From assembly GCF_029227855.1 (NCBI RefSeq), contig NZ_CP074356.1: a stretch of 64,000 nt of DNA. One strand, 5' to 3'. Below the pieces are notes generated by a model. The model had not been told where the DNA came from. It saw nothing but the letters and a program-made list of their open reading frames with translations, and made no database searches. The position numbers and the translations under genes were made by a program. The stretch comes from Escherichia coli (GTDB lineage Bacteria > Pseudomonadota > Gammaproteobacteria > Enterobacterales > Enterobacteriaceae). Below, in pieces: positions 17,918-30,593 of this stretch (the first letter of the stretch is position 1; each line of letters begins with the position of its first letter).

Positions 17918-18706
17918 CTATTTCCCCGTGAACTGCGGTGAGCGTTTAGCCAGGAACGCACTGACACCTTCACGATAATCTGCGCTCCGTCCGGCAAGTC
18001 GCTGATAGTCACGTTCCAGATCCAGTTGCGTATCAAGCGTATTGGTTTCAGCGCTATTTATCGCTTGCTTGATAAGTCCAAGACCAAATGTCGGTTGTGT
18101 CGCCAGATGCCGTGCCAGCTGTTGCGCGGTATCTGCCAGCGTTTCATCATCAACAACCTGCCAGATCATCCCCCATTCGTGCGCCTGTTCAGCACTCAGT
18201 TGATTCCCCAGCAGTGCCAGCCCCATGGCGCGCGCTCGTCCGGCAACGCGTGGCAGTAACCAGGTACCACCGCAATCGGGTACCAAACCTAACTTACTAA
18301 ACGCCATGACGAATTTTGCTGAACGGGCAGCAATAACGATATCGCACCCCAGTGCCAGTGTTGCGCCTGCCCCTGCAGCCACGCCATTAACTGCACAGAT
18401 CACCGGTTTTGGCAGTTTTGCCAGGCGACGTACCAGTGGGTTATAGAAACGCTCCACTGACATACCTAAATCCGGTGCGGGGCCTGTGGGATCAACGTTA
18501 CGATCGTTAAGATCCTGACCAGCACAAAATCCACGTCCGGCACCTGTAATTAACAAGCAACGGATAGTGTCGTCGCGCTCGACCTGTTTCAGGCACTCTG
18601 CCAGTTGTGCGTGCATCTCATCATTAAAACTGTTCAGGCGTTCCGGGCGGTTGAGCGTTAGTGTCATCACGCCCTTTTCTACATGACTGAGGATGAATTC
18701 CATCAT
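17918..18706 (-). CDS. paaG: 1,2-epoxyphenylacetyl-CoA isomerase (crotonase fold)
   Basis: 262-aa enoyl-CoA hydratase/isomerase-family ORF. Confidence 0.9.
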   Translation of the reverse strand: MMEFILSHVEKGVMTLTLNRPERLNSFNDEMHAQLAECLKQVERDDTIRCLLITGAGRGFCAGQDLNDRNVDPTGPAPDLGMSVERFYNPLVRRLAKLPKPVICAVNGVAAGAGATLALGCDIVIAARSAKFVMAFSKLGLVPDCGGTWLLPRVAGRARAMGLALLGNQLSAEQAHEWGMIWQVVDDETLADTAQQLARHLATQPTFGLGLIKQAINSAETNTLDTQLDLERDYQRLAGRSADYREGVSAFLAKRSPQFTGK

Positions 18707-23327: not shown

Positions 23328-25373
23328 ATGCAGCAGTTAGCCAGTTTCTTATCCGGTACCTGGCAGTCTGGCCGGGGCCGTAGCCGTTTGATTCACCACG
23401 CCATTAGCGGCGAGGCGTTATGGGAAGTGACCAGTGAAGGTCTTGATATGGCGGCTGCCCGCCAGTTTGCCATTGAAAAAGGTGCCCCCGCCCTCCGCGC
23501 TATGACCTTTATCGAACGTGCGGCGATGCTTAAAGCGGTCGCTAAACATCTGCTGAGTGAAAAAGAGCGTTTCTATGCTCTTTCTGCACAAACAGGCGCA
23601 ACGCGGGCAGACAGTTGGGTTGATATTGAAGGTGGCATTGGGACGTTATTTACATACGCCAGCCTCGGTAGCCGGGAGCTGCCTGACGATACGCTGTGGC
23701 CGGAAGATGAATTGATCCCCTTATCGAAAGAAGGTGGATTTGCCGCGCGCCATGTACTGACCTCAAAGTCAGGCGTGGCAGTGCATATTAACGCCTTTAA
23801 CTTCCCCTGCTGGGGAATGCTGGAAAAGCTGGCACCAACGTGGCTGGGCGGAATGCCAGCCATCATCAAACCTGCCACCGCGACTGCCCAACTGACTCAG
23901 GCGATGGTGAAATCAATTGTCGATAGTGGTCTTGTTCCCGAAGGCGCAATTAGTCTGATCTGCGGTAGTGCGGGCGACCTTTTGGATCATCTGGACAGCC
24001 AGGATGTGGTGACTTTCACGGGGTCCGCGACGACCGGACAGATGCTGCGAGTTCAGCCAAATATCGTTGCCAAATCTATCCCCTTCACTATGGAAGCTGA
24101 TTCCCTGAACTGCTGCGTACTGGGCGAAGATGTCACCCCAGATCAACCGGAGTTTGCGCTGTTTATTCGTGAAGTTGTGCGTGAGATGACCACAAAAGCC
24201 GGGCAAAAATGTACGGCAATCCGGCGGATTATTGTGCCGCAAGTATTGGTTAATGCTGTCAGTGACGCTCTGGTTGCGCGATTACAGAAAGTCGTGGTCG
24301 GTGATCCTGCGCAGGAAGGCGTGAAAATGGGCGCACTGGTAAATGCTGAGCAGCGTGCCGATGTGCAGGAAAAAGTGAACACATTGCTGGCTGCAGGATG
24401 CGAGATTCGCCTCGGTGGTCAGGCGGATTTATCTGCTGCGGGTGCCTTCTTCCCGCCAACCTTATTGTACTGTCCGCAGCCGGATGAAACACCGGCGGTA
24501 CATGCAACAGAAGCCTTTGGCCCTGTCGCAACGCTAATGCCAGCACAAAACCAACAACATGCTCTGCAACTGGCTTGTTCAGGCGGCGGTAGCCTTGCGG
24601 GAACGCTGGTGACGGCTGATCCGCAAATAGCGCGTCAGTTTATTGCCGACGCGGCACGTACGCATGGGCGAATTCAGATCCTCAATGAAGAATCGGCAAA
24701 AGAATCCACCGGGCATGGCTCCCCACTGCCACAACTGGTACATGGTGGGCCTGGTCGCGCAGGAGGCGGTGAAGAATTAGGTGGTTTACGGACGGTGAAA
24801 CATTACATGCAGCGAACCGCTGTTCAGGGTAGTCCGACGATGCTTGCCGCTATCAGTAAACAGTGGGTGCGTGGTGCGAAAGTCGAAGAAGATCGTATTC
24901 ATCCGTTCCGCAAATATTTTGAGGAGCTGCAACCAGGCGACAGCCTGTTGACTCCCCGCCGCACAATGACAGAGGCCGATATTGTGAACTTTGCTTGCCT
25001 CAGCGGCGATCATTTCTATGCACATATGGATAAGATTGCTGCTGCCGAATCTATTTTTGGTGAGCGTGTAGTACATGGGTATTTTGTGCTTTCTGCGGCT
25101 GCGGGTCTGTTTGTCGATGCCGGAGTTGGTCCGGTCATTGCTAACTACGGGCTGGAAAACTTGCGTTTTATCGAACCCGTAAAACCAGGCGATACCATCC
25201 AGGTGCGTCTCACCTGTAAGCGCAAGACGCTGAAAAAACAGCGTAGCGCAGAAGAAAAACCAACAGGTGTAGTGGAATGGTCGGTAGAGGTATTCAATCA
25301 GCATCAAACCCCGGTGGCGCTGTATTCAATTCTGACGCTGGTGGCCAGGCAGCACGGTGATTTTGTCGATTAA
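23328..25373 (+). CDS. paaZ: Bifunctional oxepin-CoA hydrolase / aldehyde dehydrogenase
   Basis: 681-aa ORF with N-terminal ALDH domain and C-terminal MaoC-like hydratase domain. Confidence 0.9.
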
Positions 25374-25385
25374 TCGGTCAATGAA

Positions 25386-25415
25386 GGGCAACGGCGAATA
25401 GTTGCCCTTTTATTT
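25386..25415 (+). terminator. Rho-independent terminator after paaZ
   Basis: gggcaac-ggcgaatag-ttgccc followed by ttttattt. Confidence 0.6.
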
Positions 25416-25620
25416 CACCAAATTTTGTGACGTTGTCACATTATGCATGATGTGTATCTGTATTTTCAGGGCACTCACTGTATGAAAAGCTGGCACACCT
25501 GCCAAACAACCTGGCAGGTGCAGGCAATCCCCTTTACATCAGTACTGATAATGTGAACCTGACTAAACCGCCCACAGAGCGCGGTTGCTAACAAGAACAC
25601 AACATCTGACGAGGTTAATA

Positions 25621-27894
25621 ATGGGAAGCCCCTCTCTGTATTCTGCCCGTAAAACAGCCCTGGCGTTGGCAGTCGCCTTAAGTTTCGCCTGGCAAGCGCC
25701 GGTATTTGCCCACGGTGGTGAAGCGCATATGGTGCCAATGGATAAAACGCTTAAAGAATTTGGTGCCGATGTGCAGTGGGACGACTACGCCCAGATCTTT
25801 ACCCTGATTAAAGATGGCGCGTACGTGAAAGTGAAGCCTGGTGCGCAAACAGCAATTGTTAATGGTCAGCCTCTGGCACTGCAAGTCCCGGTAGTGATGA
25901 AAGACAATAAAGCCTGGGTTTCTGACACCTTTATTAACGATGTTTTCCAGTCCGGGCTGGATCAAACCTTTCAGGTAGAAAAGCGCCCTCACCCACTTAA
26001 TGCGCTAACTGCGGACGAAATTAAACAGGCCGTTGAAATTGTTAAAGCTTCCGCGGACTTCAAACCCAATACCCGTTTTACTGAGATCTCCCTGCTACCG
26101 CCAGATAAAGAAGCTGTCTGGGCGTTTGCGCTCGAAAACAAACCAGTTGACCAGCCGCGCAAAGCCGACGTCATTATGCTCGACGGCAAACATATCATCG
26201 AAGCGGTGGTGGATCTGCAAAACAACAAACTGCTCTCCTGGCAACCCATTAAAGACGCCCACGGTATGGTGTTGCTGGATGATTTCGCCAGTGTGCAGAA
26301 CATTATTAACAACAGTGAAGAATTTGCCGCTGCCGTGAAGAAGCGCGGTATTACTGATGCGAAGAAAGTGATTACCACGCCGCTGACCGTAGGTTATTTC
26401 GATGGTAAAGATGGCCTGAAACAAGATGCCCGGTTGCTCAAAGTCATCAGCTATCTTGATGTTGGTGATGGCAACTACTGGGCACATCCCATCGAAAACC
26501 TGGTGGCGGTCGTTGACTTAGAACAGAAAAAAATCGTTAAGATTGAAGAAGGTCCGGTAGTTCCGGTGCCAATGACCGCACGCCCATTTGATGGCCGTGA
26601 CCGCATTGCTCCGGCAGTTAAACCTATGCAAATCATCGAGCCTGAAGGTAAAAATTACACCATTACTGGCGATATGATTCACTGGCGTAACTGGGATTTT
26701 CACCTCAGCATGAACTCTCGCGTCGGGCCGATGATCTCCACCGTGACTTATAACGACAATGGCACCAAACGCAAAGTCATGTACGAAGGTTCTCTCGGCG
26801 GCATGATTGTGCCTTACGGTGATCCTGATATTGGCTGGTACTTTAAAGCGTATCTGGACTCTGGTGACTACGGTATGGGCACGCTAACCTCACCAATTGC
26901 TCGTGGTAAAGATGCACCGTCTAACGCAGTGCTCCTTAATGAAACCATCGCCGACTACACTGGCGTGCCGATTGAGATCCCTCGCGCTATCGCGGTATTT
27001 GAACGTTATGCCGGGCTGGAGTATAAGCATCAGGAAATGGGCCAGCCCAACGTCAGTACCGAACGCCGGGAGTTGGTGGTGCGCTGGATCAGTACAGTGG
27101 GTAACTATGACTACATTTTTGACTGGATCTTCCATGAAAACGGCACTATTGGCATTGATGCCGGTGCTACGGGCATCGAAGCGGTGAAAGGTGTTAAAGC
27201 GAAAACCATGCACGATGAGACGGCGAAAGATGACACGCGCTACGGCACGCTTATCGATCACAATATCGTGGGTACTACACACCAACATATTTATAATTTC
27301 CGCCTCGATCTGGATGTAGATGGCGAAAATAACAGCCTGGTGGCGATGGATCCGGTGGTAAAACCGAATACTGCCGGTGGCCCACGCACCAGTACCATGC
27401 AAGTTAATCAGTACAACATCGGCAATGAACAGGATGCCGCGCAGAAGTTTGATCCGGGCACGATTCGTCTGTTGAGTAACCCGAACAAAGAGAACCGCAT
27501 GGGCAATCCGGTTTCCTATCAAATTATTCCTTATGCAGGTGGTACTCACCCGGTAGCAAAAGGTGCCCAGTTCGCCCCGGACGAGTGGATCTATCATCGT
27601 TTAAGCTTTATGGACAAGCAACTTTGGGTAACGCGTTACCATCCTGGCGAGCGTTTCCCTGAAGGCAAATACCCGAACCGTTCCACTCATGACACCGGTC
27701 TTGGACAATACAGTAAGGATAACGAGTCGCTGAACAACACCGACGCCGTTGTCTGGATGACCACCGGCACCACACATGTGGCCCGTGCCGAAGAGTGGCC
27801 GATTATGCCGACCGAATGGGTACATACTCTGCTTAAACCATGGAACTTCTTTGACGAAACGCCAACGCTAGGGGCGATAAAGAAAGATAAGTGA
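25621..27894 (+). CDS. tynA: Periplasmic copper/topaquinone primary amine oxidase
   Basis: 757 aa from MGSPSLYSARKTALALAVALSFAWQAPVFA (signal peptide); copper amine oxidase fold. Confidence 0.92.
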   Translation: MGSPSLYSARKTALALAVALSFAWQAPVFAHGGEAHMVPMDKTLKEFGADVQWDDYAQIFTLIKDGAYVKVKPGAQTAIVNGQPLALQVPVVMKDNKAWVSDTFINDVFQSGLDQTFQVEKRPHPLNALTADEIKQAVEIVKASADFKPNTRFTEISLLPPDKEAVWAFALENKPVDQPRKADVIMLDGKHIIEAVVDLQNNKLLSWQPIKDAHGMVLLDDFASVQNIINNSEEFAAAVKKRGITDAKKVITTPLTVGYFDGKDGLKQDARLLKVISYLDVGDGNYWAHPIENLVAVVDLEQKKIVKIEEGPVVPVPMTARPFDGRDRIAPAVKPMQIIEPEGKNYTITGDMIHWRNWDFHLSMNSRVGPMISTVTYNDNGTKRKVMYEGSLGGMIVPYGDPDIGWYFKAYLDSGDYGMGTLTSPIARGKDAPSNAVLLNETIADYTGVPIEIPRAIAVFERYAGLEYKHQEMGQPNVSTERRELVVRWISTVGNYDYIFDWIFHENGTIGIDAGATGIEAVKGVKAKTMHDETAKDDTRYGTLIDHNIVGTTHQHIYNFRLDLDVDGENNSLVAMDPVVKPNTAGGPRTSTMQVNQYNIGNEQDAAQKFDPGTIRLLSNPNKENRMGNPVSYQIIPYAGGTHPVAKGAQFAPDEWIYHRLSFMDKQLWVTRYHPGERFPEGKYPNRSTHDTGLGQYSKDNESLNNTDAVVWMTTGTTHVARAEEWPIMPTEWVHTLLKPWNFFDETPTLGAIKKDK

Positions 27895-27905
27895 TTGTTT
27901 CAGAC

Positions 27906-27935
27906 TAAAAAAACGGCACCAGGTGCCGTTTTTTA
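27906..27935. terminator. Bidirectional rho-independent terminator between convergent tynA and feaB
   Basis: aaaaaaa-cggcacc-a-ggtgccg-tttttt: perfect hairpin flanked by A-run and T-run. Confidence 0.75.
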
Positions 27936-27952
27936 CTTATGCGCGAATCAGA

Positions 27953-29452
27953 TTAATACCGTACACACACCGATTTAGTTTCACACCAACCGTCCAGCCA
28001 GTCCGGGCCAAAATCACGGCCTGTTCCTGACTGCTTCATCCCACCAAACGGTAAGTTAGCGTCAATTAAGGTATGACTGTTTACCCACACCGTACCAGCC
28101 TGTAAGCGATCGCTATATTCCAGAGCCCGGGAGAGATTTTGCGTCCAGACGCTGGCAGTTAAGCCATATTCCGTGTCGTTTGCCAGTTGTAACGCCTCTT
28201 CTCCGTCTGCTACTCGCACCAGGTTAACCACCGGACCAAACACCTCTTCACGAGTTAAGCGCAATTTAGCATCGGGATTTACCACCAGCGTTGGCGCAAC
28301 ATAATACCCCTCTCCGGCTGGTCCATTCGACCCGCGAATCAGCTCTGCTTGCTGTGCCTGCGCATCGTCAAGGAATGAACGCACTTTGTCGCAGTGCGCA
28401 CGAGAAACCAAAGGGTTAATCTGTGCAACAGGTGACATCCCCGGTCCCACTTGCAACGATTTTACCGCCTGCTCAAATCCACTAACCATCGTGTCAAACA
28501 ACGGCGCTTCAATATAAATTCGCGAACTGGCGGCGCATACTTGTCCCTGATTCAGGAAGCTTCCGGTCATCAAGCCTTCAATAACCCATTGCGGATCAGC
28601 ATCTTTTAATACAATTGCCGGGTTTTTACCGCCCAGTTCCAGCGTTACACGCGTTAAGCGATCAGCAGCAGTTCTGGCAATACCTTTTCCCGTCGCGGTT
28701 GAACCGGTAAAACTGATTTTCGCAACATGAGGATGTGACGTCAGGGCCGCGCCGCATACAGCACCGGCCCCGGTGACGACATTAAAAACGCCATCAGGGA
28801 TACCAGCCTCGCTGGCCAGTTCCGCCACGCGCAACATCGTCAGTGGCGTGGTTTCCGAAGGCTTAATCACGATTGAACAGCCTGCTGCCAGTGCTGGCAT
28901 CACCTTCCACATGCCAATCATCAACGGAAAGTTCCATGGCACAATTCCCGCTACCACGCCAACCGGCTCTTTACGCGTCCAGGCCTGATAACGCGCCCCC
29001 TGGGGTAAGGGAATCGACAAGTCCAGCGTTTTACCCGCGATTTTGGTCGTTAACCCGGCGGTATAACGCATCCAGTTCAGCGTACAGCCAACTTCAAAAG
29101 CACGGGAAATGGCAATTGACTTGCCTTGCTCCAGGGTTTCCAGTTGCGCCAGCTCCTCACTGTGCAGCTCAACCAGATCGGCAAAACGTAGCAGGATACG
29201 TTCACGCTCTGCAGGTAATCGCCCGGCCCAGCGACGCGAGACGAAGGCGCGCCATGCAGACATGACTGCGTTATCTACATCCGCTTCGTTGGCATCAGCA
29301 GTTGACGCAATTTCTTGCCCGGTTGCTGGATCAAAGATCGCTAACCGTTTTTCACTTTGTGCGGGGCCAGGACGACCATCAATATAAAGACCGTGTTGAC
29401 GATCGAGAAACTGTTGGACCTGGCTTAATACTGCTACATGCGGCTCTGTCAT
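27953..29452 (-). CDS. feaB: Phenylacetaldehyde dehydrogenase
   Basis: 499-aa aldehyde dehydrogenase (catalytic Cys region [10 protein letters not shown]; LELGGKNP). Confidence 0.92.
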
Positions 29453-29504
29453 CACTTTTCCTTATTATTTACCCAGTGTGATTTCAGTGTACGCAGCGAC
29501 AAGA

Positions 29505-29600
29505 AAAGTCACTTTTTTCGCTGTGACATTCGCTTTGTCAGCTGTGACAAGCTCCGCAAATCGTGACAATAACCGCTTATGTCTCTATGCCTGACAAGAC
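29505..29600. promoter_or_regulatory. Cluster of TGACA-N8-AAA-like direct repeats in the feaB / feaR divergent region (candidate FeaR sites)
   Basis: Repeated gTGACAa / cTGACAa elements at about 29521, 29541, 29561, 29590, several followed 8 nt later by AAA. Confidence 0.4.
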
Positions 29601-29687
29601 TTATTTCCTATAGTCAGGCTCATTAGCTTCGTTTATTGCAACACAAATGCAACAATAAAAATACATTTCACAGAGCGAAAACGTGCC

Positions 29688-30593
29688 ATGAACCCCGCAG
29701 TGGATAATGAGTTTCAGCAATGGCTTTCCCAAATCAATCAGGTATGCGGAAATTTTACCGGACGCCTGCTGACTGAGCGTTACACGGGTGTACTGGATAC
29801 GCATTTTGCCAAAGGACTAAAGCTGAGTACCGTGACAACCAACGGGGTGAATTTATCCCGCACCTGGCAGGAAATAAAAGGCAGCGACGATGCCTGGTTT
29901 TACACCGTTTTTCAGCTTAGTGGTCAGGCAATAATGGAGCAGGATGAGCGTCAGGTGCAGATTGGCGCTGGCGATATTACGTTACTCGATGCCTCACGCC
30001 CCTGTTCGCTTTACTGGCAGGAGTCTTCTAAACAGATTTCATTACTTTTACCACGCACTCTGCTGGAACAATATTTTCCCCATCAAAAACCTGTCTGCGC
30101 AGAAAGACTGGACGCTGACTTACCCATGGTGCAACTCAGTCATCGCCTGTTACAGGAGAGCATGAATAATCCGGCACTTTCTGAAACAGAAAGTGAAGCT
30201 GCGCTACAGGCGATGGTGTGTCTGCTTCGCCCAGTACTTCATCAGCGGGAATCTGTCCAACCTCGCCGTGAACGTCAGTTTCAAAAAGTGGTTACGTTGA
30301 TAGACGATAATATTCGCGAAGAGATATTACGCCCGGAGTGGATAGCCGGAGAGACAGGTATGTCAGTACGTAGTTTGTACCGAATGTTTGCCGATAAAGG
30401 TTTGGTGGTCGCGCAATATATTCGTAACCGTCGTCTCGATTTTTGTGCTGATGCGATTCGCCATGCCGCAGATGATGAAAAACTGGCAGGTATTGGCTTT
30501 CATTGGGGATTTTCCGATCAGAGTCATTTTTCAACGGTATTTAAGCAACGCTTTGGGATGACGCCAGGCGAGTATCGACGTAAATTCCGCTAA
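29688..30593 (+). CDS. feaR: AraC-family transcriptional activator of tynA and feaB
   Basis: 301-aa ORF with C-terminal AraC-type HTH. Confidence 0.9.
   Translation: MNPAVDNEFQQWLSQINQVCGNFTGRLLTERYTGVLDTHFAKGLKLSTVTTNGVNLSRTWQEIKGSDDAWFYTVFQLSGQAIMEQDERQVQIGAGDITLLDASRPCSLYWQESSKQISLLLPRTLLEQYFPHQKPVCAERLDADLPMVQLSHRLLQESMNNPALSETESEAALQAMVCLLRPVLHQRESVQPRRERQFQKVVTLIDDNIREEILRPEWIAGETGMSVRSLYRMFADKGLVVAQYIRNRRLDFCADAIRHAADDEKLAGIGFHWGFSDQSHFSTVFKQRFGMTPGEYRRKFR

Follow-up and report, generated by a model that had tools for sequence, protein, structure and literature searches.

The closest described systems are the promoters of the FeaR regulon in Escherichia coli K-12 and the class II promoters of the AraC/XylS family. 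FeaR is said, in work by Zeng and Spiro from 2013, to recognize a site of the form TGNCA-N8-AAA, with two copies in each of the tynA and feaB promoters. At class II promoters, as for AraC at araI1-I2 and for RhaS, MelR and XylS, the half-sites are direct repeats at a 21-bp spacing. Within each half-site, two short elements separated by about one turn of the helix are recognized, and the half-site closer to the promoter abuts or overlaps −35. Shorter PtynA fragments have been used in several biosensor constructs; site coordinates were not given in the biosensor and tynA literature searched. A full-text literature search for descriptions or sequences of FeaR sites returned nothing useful, the name 'FeaR' colliding with 'fear' and the primary site papers lying outside the search.

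The DNA analysed here (64 kb of E. coli, henceforth the window) carries the paaZ-tynA-feaB-feaR locus. The gene identities of tynA, feaB and feaR were confirmed, and AraC-type domains were found in FeaR by protein search. Relative to K-12, identity is 100% in the feaB-feaR spacer and ~98% in the region upstream of tynA; the differences are confined to a variable stretch (25443-25475) upstream of the sites described below and one base between the tynA proximal site and the −10 element. As the intergenic DNA is near-identical, published K-12 work is applicable to the window. The locus has the same genes, the same DNA, the same motif form and two copies per promoter as the K-12 FeaR regulon promoters, with no substantive difference. 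The FeaR-type pairs reported here likewise share with the AraC/XylS class II systems the 21-bp direct repeat and the two short elements per half-site, and their proximal half-sites would also lie next to −35. Conversely, the recognition sequence differs, and the only candidate for a looping operator, a palindrome upstream of tynA (the dyad), is a weak one.

Results

Tandem FeaR-type half-sites upstream of tynA and feaB

Across both strands of the 64-kb window, the pattern [TGNCA-N8-MAA]-N5-[TGNCA-N8-MAA], a tandem of half-sites, matches twice, against 0.02 matches expected. One match (25491-25527, plus strand) faces tynA and the other (29513-29549, minus strand) faces feaB; within each pair the half-sites are direct repeats with 21-bp spacing, directed at the regulated gene (Table 1). 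In K-12 coordinates the tynA and feaB pairs correspond to 1451444-1451480 and 1447422-1447458, respectively. The pattern had been loosened from AAA to MAA post hoc, the tynA proximal half-site of E. coli having CAA. The single TGNCA-N8-AAA element is not enriched in the window (17 found, 15 expected), so that a lone match carries no information and specificity resides in the tandem form alone. A half-site matrix derived from 30 non-Escherichia half-sites was used to rank the ~128,000 positions of the window. The distal and proximal half-sites ranked 1 and 2 at feaB, and 4 and 6 at tynA. Scored as tandems, the two promoters reached 43.4 and 33.0 (the latter being tynA, the second best), while the best score outside both promoters was 4.3.

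Table 1. Sequence features of the tynA and feaB upstream regions (positions in the 64-kb window)
Feature	Position	Strand	Description
paaZ intrinsic terminator	25383..25416	+	10-bp stem, core GGGCAAC/GTTGCCC, then TTTTATTT
Dyad, perfect 6-N3-6 palindrome	25426..25440		TGTGACGTTGTCACA; 14 bp past the T-run of the paaZ terminator
tynA distal FeaR-type half-site	25491..25506	+	TGGCACACCTGCCAAA; exact TGNCA-N8-AAA, TGGCA core; ~−70 to −55 from predicted start
tynA proximal FeaR-type half-site	25512..25527	+	TGGCAGGTGCAGGCAA; TGNCA-N8-cAA, TGGCA core; predicted at ~−49 to −34, abutting −35 region
Predicted tynA extended −10	25546..25554 (hexamer 25549-25554)	+	TGaTAATGT; predicted start near 25561
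Predicted feaB −10 hexamer	29486..29491	−	TACACT; 21 bp past proximal half-site; predicted start near 29479
feaB proximal FeaR-type half-site	29513..29528	−	TGTCACAGCGAAAAAA; exact TGNCA-N8-AAA; core is the first TGACA of the initial annotation
feaB distal FeaR-type half-site	29534..29549	−	TGTCACAGCTGACAAA; exact TGNCA-N8-AAA; core is the second TGACA of the initial annotation
CRP-like core	29543..29558	+	TGTGACAAGCTCCGCA; 2 mismatches; overlaps distal feaB half-site
Third TGACA	29564..29568	+	Outside tandem pair; kept in only some genera, lost in four; matrix rank 30877
Fourth TGACA	29592..29596	+	Matrix rank 11589; TTGCA in E. coli lineage L002, different in every other genus

Both tandem pairs are kept in nine genera, i.e. 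Escherichia and eight other enterobacterial genera. Loci were collected by a scan of genome contigs with FeaR, which gave only four useful ones, the other genera being obtained via protein search and contig look-ups. In Pseudocitrobacter, Pluralibacter, Raoultella, Scandinavium, Enterobacter, Trabulsiella and Klebsiella the tandem pattern matches twice per ~20-kb locus, always upstream of tynA and of feaB; in the Kluyvera locus, which is without tynA, it matches once. No further matches were found elsewhere in the loci of the eight other genera (~20 kb each). The phylogenetic footprint displays the half-site blocks as conserved islands amid otherwise diverged spacers. The central N of the feaB proximal half-site differs between genera (TGTCA or TGACA). 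Among the seven E. coli lineages with an intact locus, none of the 37 columns of the tynA pair varies, the distal half-site thus being invariant. In strain HS-02 the FeaR pair has decayed, yet the dyad at 25426-25440 survives.

In E. coli, a conserved −10-like hexamer is located 21 bp from the proximal half-site at both tynA and feaB, and the starts in Table 1 are inferred from these hexamers. Across the genera this distance is 21 bp at feaB and 21-22 bp at tynA. The feaB hexamer is conserved as TA(C/G)ACT in all nine genera at the constant 21-bp distance; at tynA, all genera retain CTGnYAnnnT, which keeps a fixed distance to the proximal half-site. A sigma-70 scan of the relevant strands did not reveal a consensus promoter at tynA or feaB, as expected for activator-dependent promoters.

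FeaR, as an AraC-family protein with two helix-turn-helix motifs per monomer, would activate tynA and feaB from tandem 16-bp half-sites of the form TGNCA-N8-(A/C)AA, repeated directly at 21 bp (two helical turns) and directed at the gene. Ending 21 bp short of the −10 hexamer, the proximal half-site would cover ~−49 to −34 and thereby abut a weak −35 region, an arrangement that would correspond to class II, as for AraC at araI1-I2. We estimate a probability of roughly 90% that FeaR activates the two genes in this manner via the pairs at 25491-25527 (plus strand) and 29549→29513 (minus strand). The analysis establishes where the elements lie, how they are oriented and spaced, and how conserved and specific they are; FeaR as the bound protein, the transcription start points and a class II contact with RNA polymerase are predictions. 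The initial annotation had assigned TGACA-N8-AAA elements to both FeaR-dependent promoters; the motif form TGNCA-N8-AAA agrees with the conserved elements, while the element assigned to tynA was misplaced.

TGACA pentamers in the feaB-feaR spacer

Between feaB and feaR, TGACA occurs four times on the plus strand (29524-29528, 29545-29549, 29564-29568 and 29592-29596) and once on the minus strand (29536-29540). Five TGACA/TGTCA pentamers in 73 bp constitute the maximum of the window, which was reached in 1 of 300 first-order Markov simulations; consequently, the cluster is real. It had been described as direct repeats of (g/c)TGACAa starting at 29521, 29541, 29561 and 29590, several of them followed by AAA 8 nt later. 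The four strings exist, but these starts are 1-3 nt too low, the first copy reads gTGACAt, and on the plus strand only 29545-29560 displays the downstream AAA. The AAA elements of the first two pentamers are found on the minus strand, because TTT is located 8 nt before them, and the real half-sites are read on that strand, towards feaB, rather than on the plus strand as proposed. Thus, the copies at 29524 and 29545 are indeed the cores of the conserved feaB pair, whereas the third and fourth copies, also taken as half-sites, lie outside it. The spacing of the third copy to the preceding core is 19 bp rather than 21 bp, and no AAA follows it after 8 nt. The fourth is probably a chance occurrence.

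Were all four plus-strand copies half-sites for FeaR, the result would be an array serving both feaB and feaR and giving autoregulation. Five pentamers in 73 bp are statistically unusual, and every genus retains plus-strand TGACA(29545)-N8-AA(A/T), both of which would be consistent with such an array. However, successive pentamers are spaced by 21, 19 and 28 bp, which leaves the first pair alone in phase, and no plus-strand tandem rises above background on the matrix. The third and fourth pentamers lack the AAA element, and in the matrix scan that had been suggested for the named elements they rank 30877 and 11589 (the dyad 1833), in contrast to ranks 1 and 2 for the feaB cores. Furthermore, the fourth is lost within E. 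coli and the third in four genera, and a CRP-like site accounts for the conserved CGCAA no less well. An array of this kind is highly improbable; the cluster is mostly a by-product of the feaB tandem pair together with two unrelated copies.

The CRP-like core retains TGTGA..yyGCA in nine genera and is located ~71 bp from both predicted divergent starts, near 29479 for feaB and near 29621 for feaR. As a putative CRP site, it may account for the conserved CGCAA behind the sole plus-strand 'N8-AAA'. The CGCAA conserved next to the distal half-site of feaB indicates that this block is shaped by another factor, or by an extended contact, as well. A Pho-box reading of the TGTCAC repeats was rejected, as their period is 21 bp rather than 11 bp and the published PhoB motif is found elsewhere, at 29666-29683.

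The palindrome upstream of tynA

The paaZ terminator upstream of the dyad has a predicted fold of −23.3 kcal/mol (z = −3.4). The inverted pair reported for the tynA upstream region is present exactly at 25426-25440, and its bottom strand fits TGNCA-N8-AAA (TGACAACGTCACAAAA, 25423-25438, minus strand). Its assignment as the tynA FeaR site could not be upheld, since it is single, points away from the gene, is absent from the eight other genera and ranks 1833 of ~128,000 on the matrix. The true tynA pair, whose TGGCA cores the initial annotation had missed, lies 51 bp downstream of the dyad, and the comparative evidence places the FeaR sites of this region there. The window contains 23 perfect 6-N3-6 palindromes; in view of this number, and of the 17 motif matches against 15 expected, neither the dyad nor its single motif match is beyond chance. 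Within E. coli a single one of the 15 dyad columns varies, compared with 16 of 59 columns in the flanks, and the dyad is kept in seven of eight lineages. An NsrR-like half-site adjoins it.

The bottom-strand TGACA-N8-AAA could still act as the tynA FeaR site or as an auxiliary to it, e.g. a distal inverted looping half-site comparable to araO2. It meets the minimal motif, the TGTCACA in the right arm is common to both feaB half-sites, and the dyad varies less than its flanks among E. coli (see above). Against this, all eight other genera retain FeaR and the tandem pair but are missing the dyad, the element is single and directed away from tynA with its TGACA core 53 bp upstream of the distal half-site, and its matrix rank is low (1833). 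Moreover, a minimal motif occurring 17 times in the window has a ~6-7% chance of one match per 250-bp spacer, and the two copies per promoter reported by Zeng and Spiro are both accounted for elsewhere. A FeaR-binding role is accordingly very unlikely, and the dyad is a separate, Escherichia-specific palindrome outside the FeaR module.

The dyad arms are CRP half-site sequences (TGTGA-N6-TCACA), but the spacing is N5, and in each N6 register one of the half-sites retains 0-1 of 5 matches. The earlier decision not to call CRP at TGTGA-N5-TCACA was sound, no N6 register being within 3 mismatches of the CRP core; 29543-29558 is the better CRP-like candidate. A site for a member of the CRP/FNR family, or for some other dimeric regulator, would be specific to Escherichia and could act on tynA or on an overlapping minus-strand promoter. 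TetR- and GntR-type proteins favour 15-bp odd-centred palindromes and are candidates for such a regulator. The perfect 6-3-6 symmetry with TGTGA/TCACA arms points in this direction, as does retention in seven of eight lineages of E. coli, where 28% of columns in the following 50 bp are variable, and even in HS-02 with its decayed FeaR pair. In addition, a minus-strand promoter-like match with a −10 (CATAAT) at 25445→25440 adjoins the dyad. Still, N5 is unfit for CRP or FNR, with no N6 match within 3 mismatches, such palindromes number 23 in the window with no second copy of the dyad itself, lineage L002 has lost the minus-strand −10, and the conservation contrast is based on few columns. We regard such a regulator site as unlikely.

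Other readings were rejected. The dyad is not a repeated element, as it occurs at one place per genome and no second copy was found in the 64-kb window. An RNA hairpin or terminator would require more than the weak fold of −6.8 kcal/mol (z = −0.9) without a U-tract, and a PaaX operator is contradicted by the dissimilarity to the PaaX-like ATGATTCGCGAT elements in the paaZ-paaA spacer. A sigma-54 reading of TGGCAC-N-TGCC at 25491 fails on its GG/GC distance of 9 bp, not the 12 bp of TGGCAC-N5-TTGC.

Discussion

FeaR sites at tynA and feaB were reported in 2013. In the present work the sites are placed correctly in the window and their strand is corrected, and neither a FeaR nor a CRP annotation is warranted for the tynA dyad. 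From the footprint across nine genera a cleaner half-site emerges, TGNCA-N8-(A/C)AA, at a fixed 21-bp offset to the −10 at both promoters in E. coli. This description could help builders of PtynA/FeaR biosensors to pick minimal promoter fragments.

Two separate proposals, which we consider distinctly unlikely, are that the dyad is the operator of an Escherichia-only regulator, overlapping the −10/+1 region of a weak minus-strand promoter, and that CRP and FeaR interact functionally at 29543-29558. If true, the dyad regulator would place tynA under additional control confined to E. coli, or would drive antisense transcription into the 3' end of paaZ. Likewise, as the CRP-like site overlaps the distal feaB half-site, CRP and FeaR might compete or cooperate there. 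Such interplay could account for the requirement for carbon limitation at feaB but not at tynA.

Tandem half-sites upstream of tynA and feaB

The 4.5-kb query matched 3296 of 5426 complete E. coli genomes, in which exactly the genes listed in the table are annotated. The gene order of the K-12 record is identical to that of the window, with 100% identity across the feaB-feaR spacer and ~98% across the paaZ-tynA spacer. The domains of FeaR itself are of AraC type (ligand-binding and HTH), and its identity to proteins of that name is 99%. Identity to the window is 95-99% for most genome copies of the tynA-feaB-feaR segment (query 25300-29800) and at least 99% for only 12; in one strain the segment harbours an IS200/IS605 tnpA.

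Features of the tynA-feaB-feaR region (window positions)
Feature	Position	Strand	Description
paaZ	23328-25373	+	
tynA half-site 1	25491-25506	+	exact TGNCA-N8-AAA match
tynA half-site 2	25512-25527	+	TGGCA-N8-CAA, 21 bp after the first
tynA putative extended -10	25546-25554	+	CTGnYAnnnT conserved; TGaTAATGT in the window
tynA	25621-27894	+	
feaB	27953-29452	-	
feaB -10-like element	29491 to 29486	-	TA(C/G)ACT conserved; TACACT in the window
feaB half-sites	29513-29528 and 29534-29549	-	direct repeats 21 bp apart, facing feaB
feaR	29688-30593	+	

Zeng and Spiro reportedly identified in 2013, by genetics and biochemistry, a FeaR site TGNCA-N8-AAA present twice per promoter, and the form of the motif given in the initial annotation is sound. 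Single TGNCA-N8-AAA matches occur at chance frequency in the window (17, with 15 expected). The tandem pattern [TGNCA-N8-MAA]-N5-[TGNCA-N8-MAA] gave only two matches on both strands of the 64 kb, namely the tynA and feaB pairs, against an expectation of 0.02, which is somewhat generous since A was loosened to M (A or C) after inspection of the tynA site. Two matches were attained in none of 100 shuffles. With a position weight matrix derived from 30 non-Escherichia half-sites, the four half-sites rank 1, 2, 4 and 6 among ~128,000 positions, and the tandem scores are 43.4 for feaB and 33.0 for tynA, the next best in the window being 4.3. The third-ranked half-site match, CGCCTGGCAAAACTGCCAAAACCG (18404-18427, minus strand), lies without a tandem partner in the coding DNA of paaG and is probably due to chance.

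Comparative evidence, which is independent of the A-to-M relaxation, was obtained from orthologous loci of Pseudocitrobacter (two species), Pluralibacter, Kluyvera, Raoultella, Scandinavium, Enterobacter, Trabulsiella and Klebsiella. Alignments of both spacers reveal the tandem blocks as conserved islands, reading TGGCA-N4-TG(A/C)CAAA-nnACC-TGGCA-N3-GCArrCAA at tynA and, on the minus strand, TGTCACAG-N5-mAA-rCGAA-TG(T/A)CA-N8-AAA at feaB. The central base of TGNCA is variable, with TGTCA replaced by TGACA in Pluralibacter and Scandinavium. Within each ~20-kb orthologous locus the tandem pattern was found only upstream of tynA and of feaB; Kluyvera, where tynA is absent from the locus, has a single match. 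Across the seven E. coli lineages in which the locus is intact, the tynA pair is invariant at all 37 columns. In a further assembly (GCA_025847755.1), which is either heavily pseudogenised or error-rich, paa, tynA, feaB and ydbH are all broken up into numerous short ORFs, and the proximal feaB half-site lacks one base of its A-run.

Promoter geometry

The cross-genus alignment also shows a conserved -10-like element downstream of each proximal half-site. The distance from the end of this half-site to the start of the hexamer is 21 bp at both E. coli promoters and, across genera, 21 bp at feaB and 21-22 bp at tynA. Taking the hexamer as -12 to -7, the half-sites cover approximately -49 to -34 and -70 to -55, a layout like that of AraC at araI1-I2 and also of other AraC/XylS class II activators. 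Scanning for sigma-70 promoters yielded no consensus match on the relevant strands, as expected for promoters of this activator type. We infer the start points, as well as FeaR as the bound protein. Each FeaR monomer would place its two helix-turn-helix motifs in consecutive major grooves, one at TGNCA and the next at AAA, and one dimer would take up both direct repeats, with the proximal monomer lying beside the poor -35 region of the promoter. As the FeaR biology of these promoters is already published, the finding is an ordinary one.

TGACA pentamers and the dyad upstream of tynA

The sequence strings named in the initial annotation are present in the window, including the TGACA repeats of the feaB-feaR spacer, albeit with starts noted 1-3 nt too low: the plus-strand pentamers begin at 29524, 29545, 29564 and 29592, and a minus-strand copy occupies 29536-29540. 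Five pentamers in 73 bp constitute the densest cluster of the window, reached in 1 of 300 Markov simulations. Several were said to be followed 8 nt later by AAA, but on the plus strand only the 29545 pentamer fits; 29545-29560 is the sole plus-strand TGACA-N8-AAA of the spacer, and its AAA derives from CGCAA(A/T), conserved in all genera. The first two pentamers have TTT-N8 in front of them, which puts the motif on the minus strand. The third is retained in only some genera, while in a second E. coli lineage the fourth already reads TTGCA, and it is changed in every other genus; for neither did the motif search and matrix scan of the window return an AAA element or a useful score. Thus, of the five elements assigned to FeaR, those at 29524 and 29545 stand, although read on the wrong strand, and the other three do not.

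The last of these is the dyad TGTGACGTTGTCACA (25426-25440), one of 23 perfect 6-N3-6 palindromes in the window, located 14 bp beyond the T-run that ends the paaZ terminator, with the distal tynA half-site 51 bp downstream. Its bottom strand indeed reads TGACA-N8-AAA (25423-25438), but this motif faces away from tynA, is partnerless and ranks 1833 on the matrix. The dyad is absent from every non-Escherichia genus compared, where a terminator almost directly abuts the tandem pair. Its identification as the FeaR element of tynA is very unlikely to be right; the true sites (25491-25527) had been missed. The earlier decision not to call it CRP was correct, the spacing being N5 with nothing within 3 mismatches in the N6 register.

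The predicted RNA fold of the dyad is a weak hairpin. Among eight E. coli lineages 1 of its 15 columns is variable, compared with 28-30% of columns in the next 50 bp, and in strain HS-02 (NZ_CP172818.1, 1422229-1422577) both terminator and dyad are intact despite decay of tynA and of the FeaR pair, the latter through a deletion and substitutions. The low variation and this survival hint, in small numbers, at some constraint unrelated to FeaR; most likely the dyad either arose as a palindrome by chance or serves as the operator of an Escherichia-specific factor. In HS-02 the annotation at the beginning of tynA is a short CDS for a 'stalk domain-containing protein'.

Adjoining the dyad is what we take, from the consensus, to be an NsrR-like site (25441-25463). 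In K-12 it has an 11-1-11 arrangement, ATTATGCATGA-T-GTGTACATCTA, the right half being changed to GTGTATCTGTA in the window lineage and strain NWU_1; no part of the spacer varies more than the 50-bp stretch containing it (14/50 columns). The minus strand of 25440-25505 holds two sigma-70-like matches, TTGGCA-17-TACAGT and CTGAAA-18-CATAAT, the latter with its -10 adjoining the dyad and not conserved in the second E. coli lineage.

The feaR side of the spacer

All genera retain the direct repeat GCAACAyAAATGCAACAAT, which occupies 29638-29656 in the window. PhoB is reported as a repressor of feaR, with a ChIP-seq peak at K-12 1447326 (approximately window 29645) and a published motif, TTTCACAGAGCGAAAACG, at 29666-29683 (PMC10294691). 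On the plus strand, TTTCnTATAnT (29605-29614) is invariant in nine genera; TATAGT (29609-29614) is likely the feaR -10, which would place the start near 29621.

TGTGA at 29543 and the CGCAA(A/T) element together form a CRP-like core, TGTGACAAGCTCCGCA (TGTGA-N6-CCGCA, 2 mismatches; 29543-29558, plus strand), both halves of which are conserved in nine genera. The core overlaps the distal feaB half-site, and its centre (29550.5) lies ~71 bp from each inferred divergent start. Judged by its sequence, it may be a CRP site. Expression of feaR and feaB is, according to Zeng and Spiro, reportedly dependent on carbon source, and the CRP reading, if true, would fit this dependence.
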